Shown here piece after piece: positions 14,128 to 63,165 of a stretch of 64,000 nt of DNA (the first letter of the stretch is position 1; every line of letters starts with the position of its first letter). Source of the DNA: Clostridia bacterium (GTDB taxonomy: Bacteria; Bacillota; Peptococcia; Peptococcales; BICA1-8); assembly GCA_012720075.1 (NCBI GenBank), contig JAAXZE010000030.1:24734-88733 (forward strand), in the 5' to 3' direction. The notes under the pieces were generated by a model. The model ran no database searches and had not been told where the DNA came from. It saw nothing but the letters and a program-made list of their open reading frames with translations. Both the position numbers and the translations under genes were made by a program.

Positions 14128-14153
14128 ATTGTGATATTGGGTATACATTAGAC

Positions 14154-14350
14154 AATGTATCCGATGAAAGTAGGTCTTTCGGGATGCATCAGCTTATATG
14201 CAAAATGCATGATGCATCCGATGAACGCCAATTAAAATTGATGCATCCGAAAAATATTACTTAAAAGATGATGCATCCTTTAAGCTAAACCTAGATGCAG
14301 ATGGGTCAGAGATAGTTTAACATTCATGAGATACATCCCAAAAAGTTTCC
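14154..14350 (+). repeat. Family A element, full copy (GATGCATC-rich imperfect palindrome, about 195 bp)
   Basis: Four exact GATGCATC boxes. Ends are inverted: ATGTATCCGATGAAAG at the 5' end, CATTCATGAGATACATCCC at the 3' end. About 88% identical by eye to the inverted copy at 17985-18190. Confidence 0.85.
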
Positions 14351-14358
14351 TTAAACCT

Positions 14359-14394
14359 AGTCACACTTACGCACTAACCCACTTACACACTTAA
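14359..14394 (+). repeat. Family B array (CACACTWA 8-mers) abutting the argS RBS
   Basis: AGTCACACTTACGCACTAACCCACTTACACACTTAA, then AATTGAGGTG and ATG. Confidence 0.8.
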
Positions 14395-17932: not shown

Positions 17933-17980
17933 GTCTGTGAGTGTGTTAGTGTGTAAGTGTGTTAGTGCGTAAGTGCGACT
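17933..17980 (-). repeat. Family B array, inverted
   Basis: The + strand reads GTGTGTTAGTGTGTAAGTGTGTTAGTGCGTAAGTGCGACT, the complement of CACACTWA words. Confidence 0.8.
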
Positions 17981-17984
17981 AGAA

Positions 17985-18190
17985 CTAAGGTAACTTATTA
18001 GGTTGCATCTCATGCATGCGAAATAATCCCTGACGCATCTGCATCTGGGGTTAGCTTAAAGAATGCATCATCTTTTTAGTAATATTTTTCGGATGCATCA
18101 ATTTAAATTGTCATTCATCGGATGCATCATGCATTTTGAGTATAAGCTGATGCATCCCAAAAGACCTATTTTCATCGGATACATCATTTA
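17985..18190 (-). repeat. Family A element, full copy, inverted orientation
   Basis: The reverse complement aligns end to end with 14154-14350, including the internal segment GATGCATCCGAAAAATATTACT.AAAAGATGATGCAT that the other copies lack. Confidence 0.85.
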
Positions 18191-19442: not shown

Positions 19443-19539
19443 AAGATGCATCAGATGAATGTAAGTCTTTAGGGATGCATCTGCTTTTTAGAAAAAAGCA
19501 TGATGCATCCGATGCATGACCGGTAATTTTGATGCATCG
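19443..19539 (+). repeat. Family A element, 5' half only
   Basis: AAGATGCATCAGATGAATGTAAGTCTTTAGGGATGCATCTGC...CATGATGCATCCGATGCATG...TTGATGCATCG, then switches to family E. Confidence 0.75.
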
Positions 19540-19552
19540 ATTATCTACTATT

Positions 19553-23284: not shown

Positions 23285-23346
23285 GGCTACAGTTCCCGTT
23301 CTACAGTGCTAAAGAAAAAAGGTTAAGGTTTCGCTTCGCTAGGTTG
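23285..23346 (+). repeat. Family D (CTACAGTG-type 8-mers) plus family C block
   Basis: GGCTACAGTTCCCGTTCTACAGTGCTAAAG, then AAGGTTAAGGTTTCGCTTCGCTAGGTTG. Confidence 0.8.
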
Positions 23347-23538
23347 TATTCGATAAAAGCAAGTTTTTACAGATGCATCTGCTTTTAAGCAAAATGCATG
23401 ATGAATCCGATGCATGGCAATTTTAATTGATGCATCCCATAAATGTTATCCAAAGATGATGCATCCTTTAAGTTTTACTCGGATGCAGATGCGTCAGGGA
23501 TGGTTCAACATGCATTAGATACAACCCAATAAGTCACT
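23347..23538 (+). repeat. Family A element, full copy
   Basis: CAGATGCATCTGCTTTTAAGCAAAATGCATGATGAATCCGATGCATGGCAATTTTAATTGATGCATCCC...GGATGCAGATGCGTCAGGGATG...CATGCATTAGATACAACCCAATAAGTCAC. Confidence 0.85.
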
Positions 23539-25561: not shown

Positions 25562-25568
25562 TTTATTA

Positions 25569-25600
25569 ATTGAGAATTGAGAATGGAGAGTTGAGAATTT
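25569..25600 (+). repeat. Family G array (GAGAATT/GAGAATG/GAGAGTT 7-mers)
   Basis: ATTGAGAATTGAGAATGGAGAGTTGAGAATTT. Confidence 0.85.
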
Positions 25601-26946: not shown

Positions 26947-27078
26947 TTTGGGTGAAAATTATGGGTCGGCAGTAAATCTTCCGTGTAAAGTTCCGAGGTC
27001 AGTGTGACGGCTTACGGGTCAGGCTTTTGGGACGGTGTGACGTCTTCCGGGATAGTCTCACGGTCGGTCTTGGACACC
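26947..27078 (+). repeat. Family J array (core GGTCRGYRTGACGKCTTAC), left-arm orientation
   Basis: GGGTCGGCAGTAAATCTTCC..GAGGTCAGTGTGACGGCTTACGGGTCAGGCTTTTGGGACGGTGTGACGTCTTCCGGGATAGTCTCACGGTCGGTCTTGG. Confidence 0.7.
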
Positions 27079-28271: not shown

Positions 28272-28331
28272 TGTACACTCATACACTAAAACACTTACAC
28301 ACTTAAGCACTAACATACTATCACACCAAAC
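28272..28331 (+). repeat. Family B array upstream of the radical-SAM gene
   Basis: TGTACACTCATACACTAAAACACTTACACACTTAAGCACTAACATACTATCACACCAAAC. Only a few G on the + strand. Confidence 0.8.
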
Positions 28332-28353: not shown

Positions 28354-29607
28354 ATGTTCCATTTTGTATATGCAGATGAACATGGCAACGCCTTTGACCA
28401 TCCCGGGCTATTTGCTTTAGGAAGATTAGGCAATTCCTTTGTAGAGCCGACGGAAGACGAATTTATTCCGATGCCTCAAGGCACTTCTCTGACATTGATC
28501 CCGAATCGTACCGCAGTAGTCATGGATAAAAAGGGACAATTTAAAAAATACCGGGGAAAAGGGTGGGCAGTGGGTGCACTATTGCCCCAAGGTTATACCA
28601 GGACTTTACTGCCGGCTTTTGTCAATGATGCAAAAGCCGGCCCTTTGCCTTTGTTTGGTTATACCGCAGTAGGCTATAAAGACGGACGTTTTTATGTAGC
28701 CGCTCGACCTACGGACATCGATGATAAATGGAACCCTAAACATTTTAATACCGCCGTTCTAAAAGAAAAAGTAAACCGATTAGTTGAAAAATTTCCGCAA
28801 AACCGCATTATCCGGCAATTAAGCTTTTGTGCCCTGGAATACGGCTGTTTTACTGCCCAAAATATTTTTTATGAGAGATGGGAAGGGGGTATCCCTGCTT
28901 CTCCTGCTTGTAATGCCCGATGTTTAGGCTGTATTTCCCTCCAGCCAGCGGAGTGTTGCCCTTCACCTCAAGCCAGGATTAATTTTGTGCCCGATGTCAA
29001 AGAAATTGTGGAGTTAGGTGTCCATCACCTTAATACTGCCCAGGAAGCCATCATCAGTTTTGGCCAGGGCTGCGAAGGCGAACCGTCCTTACAGGCTGAT
29101 ATAATTGTCCAATCTATCATTAAAATCCGGGAACAGACCGGTAACGGTACCATAAACATGAATACCAATGCCGGTTATACAAAAGGGATTGAGAAGATTT
29201 GCCGGGCAGGGATAAATTCTTTGCGGGTTAGTTTAAACAGTGCCCGAAAGGGAACTTATCATGCTTACTACAAACCCCAGAATTATACTTTTGAGGATGT
29301 CAAGGCCTCATTAAAGGAAGCGGACGGGCAAGGGGTTTATACATATCTTAATCTTTTGTTTTTCCCCGGCGTCAATGACTGTGAAGATGAAGTTGAAGCT
29401 CTCCTGGATTTGGTAAATACCACCGGTGTTAAAGCTATCCAAATCAGAAATCTTAATATTGACCCCGATTGGTTTTTAGCCAATATACCCCTTCCCCAGG
29501 GAGAGCCGCTAGGTGTTCCCGCCTTTTTGGAGGTTTTGAAACAAGAATTGCCCCATGTGGAAATTGGGAATTACACAAAACCGGTGGGGACATACAGAGA
29601 AGATTAA
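28354..29607 (+). CDS. radical SAM protein, unknown function
   Basis: CNARCLGC is a CxxxCxxC cluster motif. Also a GQGCEGEP glycine-rich motif. 417 aa. No partner genes nearby. Confidence 0.65.
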   Translation: MFHFVYADEHGNAFDHPGLFALGRLGNSFVEPTEDEFIPMPQGTSLTLIPNRTAVVMDKKGQFKKYRGKGWAVGALLPQGYTRTLLPAFVNDAKAGPLPLFGYTAVGYKDGRFYVAARPTDIDDKWNPKHFNTAVLKEKVNRLVEKFPQNRIIRQLSFCALEYGCFTAQNIFYERWEGGIPASPACNARCLGCISLQPAECCPSPQARINFVPDVKEIVELGVHHLNTAQEAIISFGQGCEGEPSLQADIIVQSIIKIREQTGNGTINMNTNAGYTKGIEKICRAGINSLRVSLNSARKGTYHAYYKPQNYTFEDVKASLKEADGQGVYTYLNLLFFPGVNDCEDEVEALLDLVNTTGVKAIQIRNLNIDPDWFLANIPLPQGEPLGVPAFLEVLKQELPHVEIGNYTKPVGTYRED

Positions 29608-29960
29608 GGGATGGCATTATGGCTTTGGGGTTAAAGAATCGGTCTGCTTGACGGCTAAAAGACCAATTTTTCTGGACCGCATGACGTCTTCTAAGCAAAA
29701 TTATAGGTCAGCATGACGTCTGCCGGGAAAACTTTTCCGTCAGCTTTTGTAATTCATTAAAATTAGATTTTTCGGTCGCTTCTTCCCCGGATAGCACACT
29801 GTTAACTGTATAAATTAAGGACCGACCCAGGGAATTAGCCTATAAGACGTCACACCGTCCTGCATTTTAACCCCAGAGCCGTCACACCGACCAAAAATTT
29901 AACCCGTAAGCCGTCATACCGACCTAAAAAATAACCCGAAAGGCATAATATCGGCCTGCA
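29608..29960. repeat. Family J inverted array (left arm about 29608-29745, right arm about 29815-29960; right arm has a 32-33 bp period)
   Basis: Left arm: TTGACGGCT, CGCATGACGTCTTCT, GGTCAGCATGACGTCTGCC. Right arm: GACGTCACACCGTCC..., then GTCACACCGACCAAAAATTTAACCCGTAAGCC, GTCATACCGACCTAAAAAATAACCCGAAAGGC and ATAATATCGGCCTGCAAAATAACCC, with cores at 29848, 29881, 29913 and 29945. Confidence 0.8.
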
Positions 29961-29992
29961 AAATAACCCATATAGGCCATAAGCACTCCCTC

Positions 29993-30021
29993 TTGACTCA
30001 TAAAAATAAAGAATATATAAT
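29993..30021 (+). promoter_or_regulatory. sigma-A-type promoter for rpmE
   Basis: TTGACT, 17 nt, TATAAT. Lies immediately downstream of the family J right arm. Confidence 0.8.
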
Positions 30022-38267: not shown

Positions 38268-38606
38268 TTGTGACACCTAGACATCAATTTTCAGTTGGAA
38301 GGCTTGGAAAAATAGATAATAGTAAGATTAAGGTTTCGCTTCGCTAGGTTGAGGGTAATAAATGTAGTTCCACAGTGCTAAAGTTCTACCGTTCTACAGA
38401 AAGAATTAATTAAGTTTAAAGATTAGAGATTTCGCTCACTTTCGTTCGCTAGTTTCCGCTTCGCTAGATTCAAGCTTTAGATGTCACAGTGTCACAATGA
38501 CACTATGGAACGATGTCACGAAATCCTGGTCACTGGACACGGAACCAAACAATTTAACCTGAGGGTCACTTAAACACTCACACACTTTCAAACTAAAACA
38601 CTTAAC
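38268..38606 (+). repeat. Composite E-F-C-D-C'-E-I-B filling the prfA upstream region
   Basis: TTGTGACACCTAGACATC; AATTTTCAGTTGGAAGGCTTGGAAAAA; GATTAAGGTTTCGCTTCGCTAGGTTGAGGG; TGTAGTTCCACAGTGCTAAAGTTCTACCGTTCTACAG; GAGATTTCGCTCACTTTCGTTCGCTAGTTTCCGCTTCGCTAGATTCAAG; GATGTCACAGTGTCACAATGACAC; CTGGTCACTGGACACGGAACCAAACAATTTAACCTGAG; CACTTAAACACTCACACACTTTCAAACTAAAACACTTAAC. Confidence 0.85.
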
Positions 38607-39709: not shown

Positions 39710-39791
39710 TTAATGGAGAGTTGAGAATTGAGAATGGAGAATTATTAAAAATAATTGAAAGTGGTGAATGGAGAACTGAGAGAGAGTTGAT
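39710..39791 (+). repeat. Family G array (long) between prfA and prmC
   Basis: TTAATGGAGAGTTGAGAATTGAGAATGGAGAATTATT...GTGGTGAATGGAGAACTGAGAGAGAGTTGAT. Confidence 0.85.
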
Positions 39792-42724: not shown

Positions 42725-42956
42725 AAGTGACATTGTGTCATCGTGCCATCGTGACATCGATTTTCAGTTGGAAAAGTGGGATGTTGGAAGAGTTGGAAAA
42801 GAAGATTAAAGGTTACGTCAACTTCGTTGACTAGTTTTTGCTTCGCTAGGTTGAGGTTGACTAATTGTATTAGGGCAGCGAACAAAAAGCCAGTCACAGG
42901 GCACAAGACCAAAAACATAGCCCAAAAGTACAAACAAGCTCGGTCACCAGTCACAG
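42725..42956 (+). repeat. Composite E-F-C-I-H upstream of mntP
   Basis: AAGTGACATTGTGTCATCGTGCCATCGTGACATCG; ATTTTCAGTTGGAAAAGTGGGATGTTGGAAGAGTTGGAAAAG; AAAGGTTACGTCAACTTCGTTGACTAGTTTTTGCTTCGCTAGGTTGAGG; CAGTCACAGGGCACAAGACCAAAAACATAGCCCAAAAG; GGTCACCAGTCACAG. Confidence 0.85.
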
Positions 42957-44131: not shown

Positions 44132-44261
44132 GCAGTTTCCCAAGCACCCAGGGGCTTTGTAATTACTGAGAAATGCTTGATATCAAGACGTCTTAAGACG
44201 TCATTAATATATAAAGAATTTTATTACCAGTCGTTGGTAACTTTTTAGAGGGGGTGATTTA

Positions 44262-44845: not shown

Positions 44846-45394
44846 ATGTTTAGCCTTGAGCATATAAAATCTGACACCCAAAAGGCTGTAAAAGAATTAT
44901 TAAAGGTAGCAAATCTTAAGGCCGGCCAGGTCCTGGTAGTGGGGTGCAGTACCAGTGAAATAGCCGGTCAAAAAATAGGTTCGGCCGGCAGTATCGAAAT
45001 CGCTGAAGCGGTTTTTTCCGGTTTGCTGACTTATCTTTGTGAACAAGGCATTTATTTGGCTGTTCAGTGCTGTGAGCACTTAAACAGGGCCTTGGTTGTA
45101 GAACAAGAGGCCCAGGAAAAGTATGGCTGGGAAGAGGTAACCGTTGTACCCCATCAAAAAGCAGGTGGATCCCTGGCAACAGTTGCGTATAGAAAATTTG
45201 AAAAGCCTGTTGTGGTAGAAGAAATAAAAGCTCATGCAGGTATAGATATCGGAGATACTTTTATTGGTATGCATTTAAGGAAAGTAGCGGTACCGGTTCG
45301 CTCTGAGATAAAATCCATTGGCCATGCCCATTTGACCATGGCTCGAACTCGTCCTAAGTTAATCGGCGGTGAGAGAGCAAAATATTGTTTGTAG
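44846..45394 (+). CDS. ywlG: TIGR01440/YwlG-family protein
   Basis: VVGCSTSEI and QCCEHLNRAL motifs. Bacillus ywlG position. ATG 44846 follows GGGGTGAG. Confidence 0.7.
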   Translation: MFSLEHIKSDTQKAVKELLKVANLKAGQVLVVGCSTSEIAGQKIGSAGSIEIAEAVFSGLLTYLCEQGIYLAVQCCEHLNRALVVEQEAQEKYGWEEVTVVPHQKAGGSLATVAYRKFEKPVVVEEIKAHAGIDIGDTFIGMHLRKVAVPVRSEIKSIGHAHLTMARTRPKLIGGERAKYCL

Positions 45395-45412
45395 CTTTTT
45401 GGTCATCATTGA

Positions 45413-45769
45413 GCGACAGACAACTGCTTCTTGGTTAATTTGTCCCGTCAGACAATTGCTCTTAGGTTTTCATTTTGCGACAGACAATGGCGCTAGGTTA
45501 ACATATTCCGTTAGACAATTTCTACTAGGTTTTAATTTATTCCGTCAGACCATTGCTTAAGGGTTGATTTTTCCGTCTGACAATCTGGTATTTGGTTTGA
45601 AATATGATAACTGTAGAAATATCTGACGGAATAAACAGTCCAAATATTATATCAGACGCAAAAATATGGCAATATAGAAAATCTGACGGAATAGTAAGAC
45701 GTAAGGGTATGTCTGACCTAATAGCAAAGTTTAAAAGCAAAGTCAGACGTAAAAGCTTAACCCAATGAG
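45413..45769. repeat. Family K inverted array: about 5 left-arm units (CGTCAGACAAttgc...) and about 5 right-arm units (cTGACGgaa/caaaa...), period about 30-33 bp
   Basis: Left unit starts near 45413, 45446, 45478, 45509 and 45543. Turn at 45574-45622. Right unit starts near 45623, 45653, 45683, 45713 and 45742. The last unit, GTCAGACGTAAAAGCTTAACCCAATGAG, runs into the glyA RBS. Confidence 0.85.
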
Positions 45770-45790
45770 TAAAAAAAGGAGGATACCATT

Positions 45791-47076: not shown

Positions 47077-47250
47077 ATTAACGGATGCATCCGATGAAAG
47101 TAAGCCTTTGAGGATGCATCTGCTTACAAGGAAGATGCATGATGCATCCGATGAATGCCAATTTAAATTGATGCATCCTTTAAGCTATACTCAGATGCAG
47201 ATGCGTCAGGGATGATTTTCATGCATGAGATACAACCCAATAAGTCACCT
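47077..47250 (+). repeat. Family A element, full copy with short internal deletion
   Basis: CGGATGCATCCGATGAAAGTAAGCCTTTGAGGATGCATCTGC...ATGCATGATGCATCCGATGAATGCCAATTTAAATTGATGCATCC...CAGATGCAGATGCGTCAGGGATG...CATGCATGAGATACAACCCAATAAGTCACC. Confidence 0.85.
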
Positions 47251-47303: not shown

Positions 47304-47933
47304 ATGTCCCAAGTATTTGTATTAGATCACCCTATGATTCAACATAAACTTACCTATATTCGTTCAGAAGAAACCGGTCCCAAGGAATTCCGTGAATTGG
47401 TTGAAGAAGTAGCTATGTTGATGGCTTATGAAGTAACGCGGGATTTGCCTCTGGAGGATGTTGTTGTAAAGACTCCCGTTGGTGAAGCAAAATGCAAAGT
47501 AATATCGGGCAGGAAGGTGGCTTTTGTACCTATTTTACGGGCAGGTTTAGGTATGGTCGGCGGTATGCTGAAACTTATTCCTGCCGCAAAAGTCGGTCAT
47601 ATAGGGTTATACCGGGATCCGGAAACCTTGGAGCCTGTTGAATATTACTGCAAATTGCCAACCGATTTAACAGAACGGGAATTAATCGTTATTGATCCTA
47701 TGCTGGCCACAGGAGGCTCAGCTGCAGCGGCAATCAGGTTCCTTAAAGAACGGGGTGTCAAAAATATTAAGCTTACATGTTTGATTGCCGCTCCGGAGGG
47801 AATCAAAAGAGTGCAGGACGAGCATCCCGATGTCAATATCTATGTAGCAGCCGTTGATGAGAAGCTTAATGATCATGGTTACATAGTACCGGGCTTGGGT
47901 GATGCAGGGGATAGGCTTTTCGGAACCAAATAG
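47304..47933 (+). CDS. upp: uracil phosphoribosyltransferase
   Basis: [17 protein letters not shown] and DPMLATGGS motifs. Confidence 0.95.
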
Positions 47934-47935
47934 CT

Positions 47936-48173
47936 CACGGGTTAATTTTTTGGTCAGCATGACGGCTTAAGGGATATTTATTTGGGTCAGCATGACGGCT
48001 TACCGGTTAAAATGCACGTCAGCGATTAAGTTTTTTATATTAATACTGAAGCTATTCCTTTAAATATCGGGCTGACGGAAAATATAAACCACAGAGACGT
48101 CATGCTGACATTCTGAATAGCTTAGGAGACGTCAGGCGGACCCAAAATGTTAGCCCAGAAGTAAAAACGGGGG
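47936..48173. repeat. Family J inverted array between upp and comEB
   Basis: Left arm: GGTCAGCATGACGGCTTAAGGG (47952) and GGGTCAGCATGACGGCTTACCGG (47984). Right arm: CTGACGGAAAATATAAACC, GACGTCATGCTGAC (48096) and GACGTCAGGCGGACCCAAAATGTTAGCCCAGAAG, which runs into the RBS. Confidence 0.85.
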
Positions 48174-48180
48174 TGCTTTT

Positions 48181-48624
48181 ATGCGTCCTGATTGGGATGA
48201 ATATTTTTTAGAGATAACGCAGGTGGTGGCCAAAAGGTCCACTTGTCTGAGGAGACAGGTGGGAGCGCTGATTGTCAAGGATAAGCATATCCTGTCTTCC
48301 GGCTATAACGGCGCCCCTTCAGGTCTCTTGCACTGCTCGGAGACAGGTTGCACTCGTGAACAAATGCACATTCCTAGAGGAGAGCGGCATGAGCTTTGCC
48401 GGGGTATCCACGCCGAACAAAACGCCATTATTCAGGCTGCAGTCCATGGCGTCAGCATAAAGGGGGCTACCCTGTATACGACAACCTTTCCCTGTGTATT
48501 GTGCGCCAAAATGCTAATCAATGCGGGAATAGTAAAAATAGTATATCAGACTGGCTATCCGGATAAGCTTTCTTTAGATATTCTAAAAGAAGCAAAAATT
48601 GCGATACAAGAATGGGGCAAATAA
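48181..48624 (+). CDS. comEB: dCMP deaminase (ComEB type)
   Basis: HAEQNA and PCVLCAKM zinc motifs. 147 aa. Confidence 0.85.
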
Positions 48625-48638
48625 GGGTGATGTTAAAA

Positions 48639-48825
48639 TTGTAGTCCTACAGTGCTACAGTTCTACCGTTCTACAGTAAAAAAGGTTGAGGTTTCGCTAC
48701 GCTAGATTAAGGTTGAGAATTCACACTAACACACTAACACACTTAATTATTACTGGGTACTGGTCACTGGACACTGGGCACAAGACCAAAAAAGTTAACA
48801 CATAAGTCCGGCCACCGGTCACTAA
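48639..48825 (+). repeat. Composite D-C-B-I-H upstream of the MazG-like gene
   Basis: TTGTAGTCCTACAGTGCTACAGTTCTACCGTTCTACAG; AAGGTTGAGGTTTCGCTACGCTAGATTAAGGTTGAG; TCACACTAACACACTAACACACTTAA; TACTGGGTACTGGTCACTGGACACTGGGCACAAGACCAAAAAAGTTAACACATAAG; CCGGTCACTAA. Confidence 0.85.
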
Positions 48826-49200: not shown

Positions 49201-49347
49201 AGATTGAAGATTAAGATTTCGCCAACTTTGTCGGCTAGTTTACGCTTCGCTAGGTTGAGGTTGAGAACTTAAATAATTCTCAACTCTCCATTCTCAATTC
49301 TCAATTAATCTTAAGCACTTACACACTAACACACTCACACACTAAAA
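49201..49347 (+). repeat. Composite C-G(inverted)-B upstream of wecB
   Basis: GATTAAGATTTCGCCAACTTTGTCGGCTAGTTTACGCTTCGCTAGGTTGAGGTTGAG; AATTCTCAACTCTCCATTCTCAATTCTCAATT; CTTAAGCACTTACACACTAACACACTCACACACTAAAA. Confidence 0.85.
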
Positions 49348-55908: not shown

Positions 55909-57394
<1,486 letters not shown>

Positions 57395-57805: not shown

Positions 57806-57865
57806 TTGTTTTTAGCAAAGGAAAATATTCCTTGAAGGGATATTTGTAAATTTAATAGAATAAAA

Positions 57866-57950
57866 AATTGCTTATTGTGCTAAGCAATTAGCCTAAAACA
57901 GATACACCGCAGTCTATATATATAGACTGCGGTATATCTGTTTTAGGTTT
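57866..57950 (+). terminator. tandem hairpins after atpC (9-bp stem, then a 56-bp near-perfect palindrome)
   Basis: AATTGCTTA/TAAGCAATT at 57866-57889. CCTAAAACAGATACACCGCAGTCTATAT / ATATAGACTGCGGTATATCTGTTTTAGG at 57892-57947 with one mismatch, then TTT. Confidence 0.55.
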
Positions 57951-57985
57951 AAAACCAATACTAATTATATAAATAAAAAACAAAA

Positions 57986-58107
57986 GGCTGACGGAAAATG
58001 AAACCAATTAGCCGTCATGCAGACCCCAAAAATGGCTTCCAAGTTGTCATGCGGACTTGAAAAGTTTGCGTGAAAGCCGTCATGCCGACCCCATAATAAC
58101 CCGAAAG
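57986..58107 (+). repeat. Family J right-arm array (4 units) upstream of the yueI-like gene
   Basis: GGCTGACGGAAAATGAAACCAATTAG / CCGTCATGCAGACCCCAAAAATGGCTTCCAAGTT / GTCATGCGGACTTGAAAAGTTTGCGTGAAAG / CCGTCATGCCGACCCCATAATAACCCGAAAG. Confidence 0.8.
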
Positions 58108-58124
58108 AAATATGGGAGGATACA

Positions 58125-58487
58125 ATGGAAAAATCCGAACTGGAGAAATTTTTAGAAGTAGGAATTCATGGAACCCCTGAACTAAAAAGTGAAGAAAAAA
58201 AGATTTATCTCGGGTGCTTCCGGGAAAGGATTCTTAAGGTTCTAACCAAGAAGCAAGTGACGGAGAAAGGAACATATAAAGAAATTTTAGACGCCATTCG
58301 GGACAAGCGGGCTAAAAGACTGATTGTTTCCAATGACGTTCAGCTTTCGTCCGCCATGGATTATATAAACCTTGCAAAAGATAACGGTTTGGAATTTACG
58401 CTGGTAGACGGTGATGATTATACCGGTGATATTGGCTTGGTGGTTGTCAGTGATACTGCGGTGGATGAAGAAAACATTTTTGTCTAA
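58125..58487 (+). CDS. YueI-like (DUF1694) protein
   Basis: 120 aa. FLEVGIHGTPELKSEEKK..LG.FRERI pattern is recalled from the DUF1694 family. Confidence 0.55.
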   Translation: MEKSELEKFLEVGIHGTPELKSEEKKIYLGCFRERILKVLTKKQVTEKGTYKEILDAIRDKRAKRLIVSNDVQLSSAMDYINLAKDNGLEFTLVDGDDYTGDIGLVVVSDTAVDEENIFV

Positions 58488-61494: not shown

Positions 61495-61573
61495 AATAAT
61501 TGAGAATTGGAGAGTTGAGAATGGAGAATTCCAATTTCTATACACTAACTCACTTAAACACTCACACACTAAT
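61495..61573 (+). repeat. Family G plus family B upstream of murA
   Basis: AATAATTGAGAATTGGAGAGTTGAGAATGGAGAATTCC, then TATACACTAACTCACTTAAACACTCACACACTAAT. Confidence 0.85.
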
Positions 61574-62990: not shown

Positions 62991-63165
62991 TTAAATGATG
63001 CACCCGATGAAAGTTAATCTTTGGAGATGCATCTGCTCTTAAGTAAAATGCATGATGTATCCATTGCATGCCAATTTAAATTGATGCATCCCTTTAAGTA
63101 ATTCCAAGGAGCAGATGCGTCAGGAAATATTTAACATCCATGAGATACATCCCAATAAGTTTACT
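62991..63165 (+). repeat. Family A element, degenerate full copy between the murA stop and its terminator
   Basis: Same box order as the other copies, with point changes (GATGCACC, GATGTATCC). Followed by the intrinsic terminator at 63194-63219. Confidence 0.8.

Follow-up and report, generated by a model that had tools for sequence, protein, structure and literature searches.

Family J, an intergenic repeat with inverted arms of 32-33 bp tandem units in uncultured relatives of Desulfonispora

The 64-kb stretch of DNA analysed here (the window) carries, at four loci, copies of an apparently undescribed repeat family, J, whose complete form consists of two inverted arms of head-to-tail units around a short AT-rich centre. 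More than 15 copies were found over four genomes of one clade. These copies are probably mobile, interspersed intergenic DNA, and a role as operators for a regulator is not supported. The more specific reading, that J is a fold-back variant of the BOX/BIME/MITE-type interspersed repeats which spreads in trans and is resized by slippage, seems to us about evenly poised between right and wrong. REP/BIME, BOX and Correia elements and MITEs shape operon expression and genome plasticity, few architectures of such repeats are known, and hardly any of these are from anaerobic Firmicutes. To these J adds a fold-back plan with minisatellite arms, a 32-33 bp unit and ends at fixed phase, and at least one genome has elements whose two arms differ in unit type.

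Unit and arm architecture

The family J unit, 32-33 bp long, comprises a 16-bp core, GGTCGGCRTGACGKCT, and a semi-conserved spacer of 16-17 bp, NNNGGGTTAAnnTTTTG. From 38 seed units drawn from the window and related genomes we derived the core-spacer consensus GGTCGGCATGACGGCT-TATGGGTTAAATTTTTG, in which the core columns are conserved at 86-100% (position 8 being R and position 14 K), and the spacer is marked by a G at position 22 that never varies, by A at position 25 and by a run of T. The initial annotation had described the core as a GTCA-N3-TGAC palindrome. This would need an A at core position 5, which is present in 31% of the 38 units (60% have G), and the core that is actually conserved has a fixed asymmetry. 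Around the central CATG, five of the seven pairs are symmetric and two positions are fixed and asymmetric; the core is therefore an oriented site and no true palindrome.

That these sequences form one periodic repeat family, as had been proposed, stood up to formal analysis. TRF returned a period of 32 (3.1 copies, score 107) at 29844-29942, and a repeat search found direct copies every 32-33 nt at 47900-48200, 29580-30000 and 57950-58130, as well as inverted pairs linking the two halves of the first and of the second of these regions. A loose core pattern matched 28 times in the window as compared to 4.45 +/- 2.63 times in shuffled sequence, with none of 100 shuffles reaching 28, and nhmmer with the J unit profile placed about 12 window units at E < 0.01, all of them inside the four loci. 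Copies are heterogeneous, with units about 65-90% alike, and among the copies compared there were no near-identical ones that would point to recent movement.

Several other descriptions of the unit were considered and set aside. A higher-order structure of four octamers (GTCGGCAT/GACGGCTT...) was not significant, the self-similarity at lag 8 being 0.328 against a null-maximum mean of 0.332. Nor is it a REP/REPIN stem-loop, since its core pairs at five of seven positions around CATG without a loop, and the GTAG that stands beside the palindrome as the REP hallmark does not occur in the J unit consensus GGTCGGCATGACGGCTTATGGGTTAAATTTTTG. A CRISPR array is likewise inappropriate, as J spacers have a common consensus (the invariant G22 and the T-run) and the arms are inverted.

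To read arm structure we chained cores lying 29-37 nt apart. All 15 complete elements (13 independent) have inward-pointing arms, with forward units on the left and inverted units on the right; the reverse was never seen. The outermost core lacks GGTC and starts at (G)GCATGACGKCT in 12 of about 20 arms, while the innermost core retains GGTCGGCAT(G) and has lost ACGGCT, making GGTCGGCATG the inner arm end. An arm can thus be written as (GCATGACGKCT-spacer-GGTCG)n-GCATG. Because the arms end at a fixed phase, the element has defined terminal inverted repeats, GGCATGACGKCT...AGMCGTCATGCC, and these are present in most copies, as in MITEs. The centres, 10-130 nt long and AT-rich, are unrelated from copy to copy, and some hold other short arrays. 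Elements measure 120-520 bp and contain no ORF.

In BICA1-8, and partly in BRH_c20a (the two related genomes introduced below), the two arms of an element are built of different unit types. Type A has the core GGTCGGC and a spacer ending in TTTTTG; type B has the core TGTC/TGAC/AGAC-GGC and the spacer NNNGGGaTAAnCTGmA. The window and the genome GCA_012728695.1 (locus L024) have both types intermingled. The idea that A and B arms keep a fixed orientation, with respect either to transcription or to the contig, was rejected, as both orientations occur; in two elements only 3.5 kb apart on one BICA1-8 contig (L004) the A/B polarity is opposite.

Copies in the window and among relatives

The initial annotation had placed the family at five loci. 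Four of these were recovered by nhmmer and the repeat finders, at 26964-27078, 29609-29988, 47936-48161 and 57986-58107. The remaining one, a GACGTC doublet at 44185-44203, was rejected as a J unit, matching the profile at positions 8-19 only and with E = 6; it is a 10-nt tandem, AAGACGTCTT/AAGACGTCAT, outside family J. The J copies of the window are flanked by rho, an M23/LysM peptidase gene, a radical-SAM gene, rpmE, upp, the dCMP-deaminase gene comEB, atpC and yueI (DUF1694). As had been noted, left arms directly follow stop codons, beginning 1-3 nt after those of the radical-SAM gene (at 29609) and of upp (at 47936), and right arms end at the downstream ribosome-binding site (RBS) of the dCMP-deaminase gene (about 48161) and of yueI (58107), or, in a third case, about 5 nt ahead of the -35 box of the rpmE promoter. 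Arms of this one family thus span from stop codon to RBS or to promoter.

Between upp (stop codon 47931-47933) and comEB, the left arm (47936-48023, forward strand, 2.5 units) opens with a partial outer unit reduced to the spacer (47936-47951), continues with two full units (47952-47984, 47985-48017) and closes with the inner half-core GTCAGC (48018-48023). An AT-rich centre, or loop, follows at 48024-48070, and the right arm of inverted units (48071-48161, reverse strand, 2.5 units) runs from the inner half-core GCTGAC (48071-48076) through cores at 48095-48110 and 48127-48142 to an outer partial spacer that ends at 48161. Unit spacing in these arms is 33/32, and the comEB Shine-Dalgarno sequence (SD) lies at about 48169-48173, with the ATG at 48181. 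We found no promoter-like or terminator-like site inside this spacer, and the element is therefore probably co-transcribed.

The larger element lies between the radical-SAM gene and rpmE. Its left arm (29609-29744, forward strand, 4 units) has unit starts at 29609 (outer and degenerate, GGATGGCATTATGGCT), 29641, 29674 and 29706 and ends in the half-core GTCAGC at 29739-29744. The centre occupies 29745-29818, and the right arm (29819-29988, reverse strand, 4-5 units) contains the inner half-core GGACCGACC, cores at 29845, 29877 and 29909, and degenerate outer units at 29941 and 29973. The promoter-like TTGACT-17-TATAAT before rpmE (29993-30021, forward strand; 11/12 match) stands outside the J element.

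The other two copies are half elements. Downstream of rho, 26964-27078 (forward strand) holds forward units only and no right arm, with units at 26964 (degenerate), 26997 and, 30 nt further on, 27030, and the inner half-core GGTCGGTC. Between the atpC terminator and yueI, 57986-58107 (reverse strand) holds inverted units only and no left arm: an inner half-core GGCTGACGG, cores at 58010-58025, 58042-58057 and 58075-58090, and an outer spacer up to 58107, followed by the yueI ATG at 58125. This half element sits 3' of the strong atpC terminator.

Directly after atpC we also observed a two-hairpin element (57862-57945), in which a 9-bp hairpin is followed by a 21-bp hairpin between an A-run and a T-run, with TAGAAT in front. 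It is highly conserved, with one compensatory pair change, and recurs in relatives (L019:14672-14760, L020:14338-14422, L021:14825-14906, L022:14784-14868, L025:12400-12483 and L026:9510-9598), in contrast to the fast-evolving arrays around it. It has no match in Rfam, and could be a bidirectional terminator or a small RNA.

To place J among genomes we scanned one genome per species with a strict two-core pattern. True matches came from Peptococcaceae bacterium BICA1-8 and Clostridiaceae bacterium BRH_c20a, both MAGs from Opalinus Clay boreholes; two actinobacterial tandems that also matched are unrelated to J. Chance GC-rich tandems turned up by the two-core search lie at L003:4170-4420 (Streptomyces tendae), L018:1880-1935 and L015:780-880, and such tandems include CCGACGTCACA repeated five times and GGTCCGCGTGACGGC at about 35-nt spacing. 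In a metagenome scan the sole true matches were to the BRH_c20a organism, the rest being again chance GC-rich tandems. Syntenic loci, gathered via AtpA and YueI homologues from relatives' genomes sampled as fragments, added J elements in GCA_012728695.1 between glyA and upp, between mazG and wecB, and 3' of atpC. As the strict two-core pattern had missed this genome, distribution and copy number are to be read as lower bounds.

The four J-bearing genomes are therefore the window's own MAG, BICA1-8, BRH_c20a and GCA_012728695.1, all of one clade. The AtpA of the window is 100% identical to a protein of an NCBI 'MAG: Clostridia bacterium', and the closest named relative by this protein is Desulfonispora thiosulfatigenes, at 85%. 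No J cores occur in the syntenic loci, 13-21 kb each, of five related MAGs and Desulfonispora, and viral contigs, plasmids and phages gave no match. J is lineage-restricted, found in a few uncultured relatives of Desulfonispora. Rfam 15 had no match to the whole window at gathering score and none to 47900-48200 at E <= 1.

J sites are found only between genes, and the flanking genes are housekeeping genes in tandem, convergent and divergent pairs, with no common function or regulon; the position of J relative to promoters, SDs, stop codons and terminators varies. Occupancy of a given site differs among relatives. The upp-comEB spacer contains J in the window only, relatives having other inverted-arm arrays, heptamers, or, in L023 and L024, a spacer of just 12-19 nt. 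The hisD-hisB site has a 350-bp J element in BICA1-8 as compared to a 67-nt spacer in the window, and at atpC-yueI the window has a J arm, L024 a full element and BICA1-8 GTGACTA/TAGTCAC arrays. In L024 we also observed a J left arm followed by CA-rich arrays of other families, which fits a more general array-forming process in these genomes.

The arrays that occupy the upp-comEB spacer of three relatives (L019:4481-4606, L020:4898-5046 and L022:4203-4525) consist of a left arm GGTTAAGGT... and a right arm ...ACCTTAACC. At this site the inverted-arm plan has thus been kept across relatives, with the repeat family exchanged.

Two J sites, clpC-radA and M23 peptidase-spoIIID, are common to BICA1-8 and BRH_c20a only, whose flanking genes are about 92% identical by a by-eye estimate from the alignments. 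At these sites one arm matches unit for unit, the centres have been replaced, and the copies differ by exact indels of whole units, one unit at clpC-radA and about four at spoIIID.

Candidate explanations and known systems

With its defined termini, its two-arm plan, and copies in both orientations and only in intergenic DNA, J fits the BOX, BIME/REPIN and MITE class of interspersed repeats, which are small and probably mobile and non-autonomous. Lineage-specific sites, persistence with changes in unit number, lack of coding capacity and the absence of any regulon logic likewise point to a mobile repeat, and, as MITEs are, J is small, non-coding, multi-copy and dispersed. Target-site duplications were found in no copy inspected, inspection of the flanks revealed no conserved insertion target, and no transposase, RAYT, nuclease or other candidate partner lay beside J copies in about 250 kb of loci. 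The heterogeneity of the copies, the half elements and the mixed-family array of L024 also count against this reading. Since target duplications and a partner enzyme, which a MITE would be expected to have, were not found, we hold the mobile-repeat reading near the midpoint between belief and disbelief.

The mobile-repeat reading implies that an enzyme supplied in trans would recognise the repeated core and spread copies between intergenic sites, in the manner put forward for MITEs, BOX elements and REPINs, and that the arrays would then lengthen or shorten by slippage or unequal recombination. Proteins such as a transposase-like enzyme or an architectural protein may bind the conserved core. 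Where no terminator intervenes, as at upp-comEB, the element would be co-transcribed and its cores would pair arm to arm, and the resulting long, interrupted hairpin would draw the stop codon close to the next RBS. Such folding would probably make insertion inside operons tolerable, and any effect on mRNA decay or coupling may be an unselected by-product.

It is also conceivable, if rather unlikely, that the hairpin is itself what selection maintains, with J acting at the RNA level as an mRNA stabiliser, an RNase III site or a long-spacer device for translational coupling. The predicted arm-to-arm hairpins are long (-78.5 kcal/mol and z = -5.3 for 47934-48180; -98.3 kcal/mol and z = -2.8 for 29608-29975), the arms reach from just past the stop codon to just short of the SD, the upp-comEB spacer has neither promoter nor terminator, several elements lie within operons (e.g., hisD-hisB in BICA1-8), and effects on transcripts have precedents in BIME, ERIC, Correia and BOX elements (PMC3049150). 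However, over 14 elements cognate arms pair no better than arms taken from different copies (-0.730 and -0.735 kcal/mol/nt, respectively) and no co-evolution of arms within a copy was seen, indicating that the hairpin potential stems from the family consensus alone. For elements between co-directional genes the minimum free energy favours the sense strand in 6 of 11 cases and the antisense strand in the other 5; the mean difference is about zero, so a G.U signature of transcript-level selection is lacking. The spacers of A-type and B-type arms are not complementary either. With no cognate advantage and no sense bias, J lacks the signs expected of a selected RNA hairpin. A dedicated hairpin function is also hard to reconcile with half elements, which are unable to form the hairpin, and with copies lying between convergent or divergent genes; other copies lie 3' of terminators, and two relatives (L023 and L024) do with 12-19 nt in place of the upp-comEB spacer.

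The initial annotation implied that the arrays are operators, at which a dimeric regulator bound to GTCAnnnTGAC/GACGTC cores would control the flanking promoters or translation. The 16-bp core is indeed far more conserved than the spacer, a spacing of 32-33 bp is close to three helical turns and would put the sites on one face of the DNA, and one right arm abuts the near-consensus rpmE promoter. Yet the palindrome on which such a dimer would sit is present in only about a third of the units, J lies between tandem, convergent and divergent genes beside unrelated housekeeping genes with no constant place relative to promoters, SDs, stop codons or terminators, the same intergenic sites elsewhere hold other repeats or hardly any spacer, and orthologous copies in close relatives have had their centres replaced and differ freely by whole units. 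For these reasons operators are an improbable account of the family. Some E. coli BIMEs have been reported as sites for nucleoid proteins or gyrase, and J could by analogy be a set of phased host sites whose T-tracts bind such proteins in chromosome organisation. Consistent with this, tracts of T5-6 recur every 32-33 bp along the arms, the signal shows DNA-level symmetry and favours neither strand, and BICA1-8 and BRH_c20a have retained copies at the same site; on the other hand, many array families of different sequence occupy equivalent places in these genomes, and J is absent from close relatives, so we give an architectural role little credence. We think it just as improbable that the arrays are of purely local origin, made in place by slippage and template switching without transposition, within a genome-wide tendency for spacers to fill up with arrays that are GT-rich past stop codons and CA-rich ahead of start codons. 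Whole-unit indels, the mixed-family spacers of L024, the failure to find target-site duplications, and the fact that the 7-9 nt arrays and family K (see below) have the same polarity and inverted-arm plan all speak for local origin. What decides against it is that one complex unit, with the same core, the same G22 and the same arm-end phase, recurs at more than 15 unrelated sites in four genomes; such a unit cannot arise independently that many times, and copying between sites is therefore required.

In the literature searched we found no bacterial description of a fold-back plan with tandem-array arms. The closest structural analogue overall is the Foldback (FB) element of Drosophila, which has long inverted arms of tandem sub-repeats, with 31-bp inner units and variable arm length, around a loop that is short or absent. 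FB elements are kilobase-sized, make 9-bp target duplications and in some copies carry a transposase; as FB is eukaryotic, the likeness is structural only. The ends of Tn7, Mu and Tn402/IS21-type elements each carry several direct transposase-binding sites, lie in inverted orientation and differ from one another in site number and type. J resembles them in its direct site copies per end and in its unlike ends (compare the A and B arms). Their sites are about 19-22 bp long and not strictly periodic, and these elements have TG...CA ends, make 5-bp duplications and carry genes; no such features were found for J.

BIMEs contain two unit sub-types, Y and Z, in opposite orientation, and their units alternate in orientation. 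The A and B arms of J resemble these sub-types, while J units are direct repeats within an arm. A REP is a stem-loop of 20-40 nt with a conserved GTAG, whereas the J core has dyad symmetry with no loop and no GTAG. What J has in common with REP/BIME and REPIN-RAYT systems, which are high-copy extragenic palindromic repeats in inverted, hairpin-capable pairs (PMC3116915, PMC3337134), is this abundance of extragenic inverted pairs able to form hairpins, along with, as in REP/REPIN, vertical persistence combined with spread within the genome.

The closest bacterial analogues, as far as architecture can be compared, appear to be BOX and the BrickBuilt MITE. BOX elements of Streptococcus pneumoniae and S. 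suis, of the form boxA-(boxB)n-boxC, are intergenic and non-coding, fold when transcribed, and are regarded as non-autonomous, largely dormant mobile repeats or parasites (PMC3049150). BOX and J both belong to Firmicutes, are intergenic, have variable tandem sub-units and terminal inverted complementarity, and are predicted to fold when co-transcribed. In BOX, however, the tandem boxB (45 nt) is central and lies between unique end modules, while in J it is the arms that consist of tandem arrays, around a short and variable centre. The BOX module order, with boxA and boxC as ends around boxB, is not found in J, whose architecture sets it apart, and no IS with similar ends is known for J. The BrickBuilt MITE of Porphyromonas gingivalis contains an internal 23-nt minisatellite between leader and tail sub-units (PMC4596501). 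It is like J in being intergenic, with small inverted-repeat ends, a tandem array of variable copy number and a limited host range, and unlike it in having a single direct array rather than two inverted ones, of another unit length and sequence.

Other repeats in these genomes

The main wider value of J lies in its being part of a repeat-rich intergenic landscape in this clade, and the genomes that host it have intergenic DNA unusually full of polar tandem arrays. J may throw light on the origin and spread of such arrays and on their tolerance in operons. It accounts for several long spacers of the window without invoking regulation, and serves as a warning to annotators not to take arrays of this kind for operators, CRISPR-like arrays or riboswitches.

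A second family of inverted-arm arrays, K (45394-45790), has a period of 31-32 nt and the core CCGTCAGACAATTGCT. Its right arm is degenerate, with CTGACGG every ~32 nt, and its spacer cttaGGTTttcATTTTg looks by eye like the J spacer (GGTT...ATTTT), although the J profile did not match it. Judging from these sequences, K is a probable sister of J.

Intergenic tandem arrays of 7-8 nt were observed in the window at 14362-14393, 17936-17975, 25568-25599, 28275-28320, 38567-38605, 39712-39743, 42727-42759, 48643-48781, 49275-49345, 55925-55955 and 61498-61530. Arrays just 5' of RBSs are G-poor and CA-rich (CACACTTA, CACTAACA, CACCAGT, AATTCTC), and complements of them lie just past stop codons (TGTAAGTG, AATTGAG, GTGACATC); ACTGGGC arrays are exceptions to this polarity. 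The same polarity is seen in related genomes, including 5' of the minus-strand radA in L006.

Short arrays of this kind have known counterparts. Cyanobacterial STRRs are short tandem heptamer arrays, and the TAACTGA repeats of Beggiatoaceae are intergenic tandem repeats near start codons (PMC4679880); the many 7-8 nt arrays that lie beside J in the window and its relatives recall both. J has in common with STRR and TAACTGA its abundance as an intergenic tandem repeat and a patchy phylogenetic distribution, and differs from these heptamers in its 32-33 bp composite unit and two-arm architecture.

In four relatives a small gene for a four-helix-bundle protein of the 23S_rRNA_IVP/bAvd-like type is inserted in the atp operon, between atpG and atpD (L019:12395-12785, L021:12400-12945, L024:12400-13045 and L026:7087-7622). 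In the three that were read, L019, L021 and L024, it stands between inverted heptamer arrays whose sequence differs by genome, namely (GTGACTA)n...(TAGTCAC)n, (GTGGCTA)n...(TAGCCAC)n and (TAGTCGA)n...(TCGACTA)n. The gene together with its arrays looks like a cassette with array arms. The atp operon of the window has no such gene, while a CCAGTCA array remains at 55925-55955.

It is tempting, though quite a long shot, to view J, K and the 7-9 nt arrays as one gene-polar repeat system produced by dedicated machinery and acting on mRNA. Such a system would place GT-rich arrays behind stop codons and the complementary CA-rich ones ahead of ribosome-binding sites, its machinery might be linked to the IVS-protein/bAvd-like cassettes, and the arrays would act through coupling, Rho access or RNase III processing. 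If this were true, J would offer a tractable handle on the long-unexplained repeats of the STRR/TAACTGA type.

A further dispersed and periodic intergenic repeat of 90-170 nt, with GATGCATCC motifs every ~30 nt, is common to the window (14150-14345, 18080-18190 on the reverse strand, 19455-19550, 23340-23450, 47080-47250 and 62995-63165) and to BRH_c20a (L007:1050-1215). Finally, one relative only has a stand-alone small GIY-YIG gene (L022:16298-16585) between yueI and a DUF4127 gene, and this insertion is another sign of intergenic invaders in the clade.
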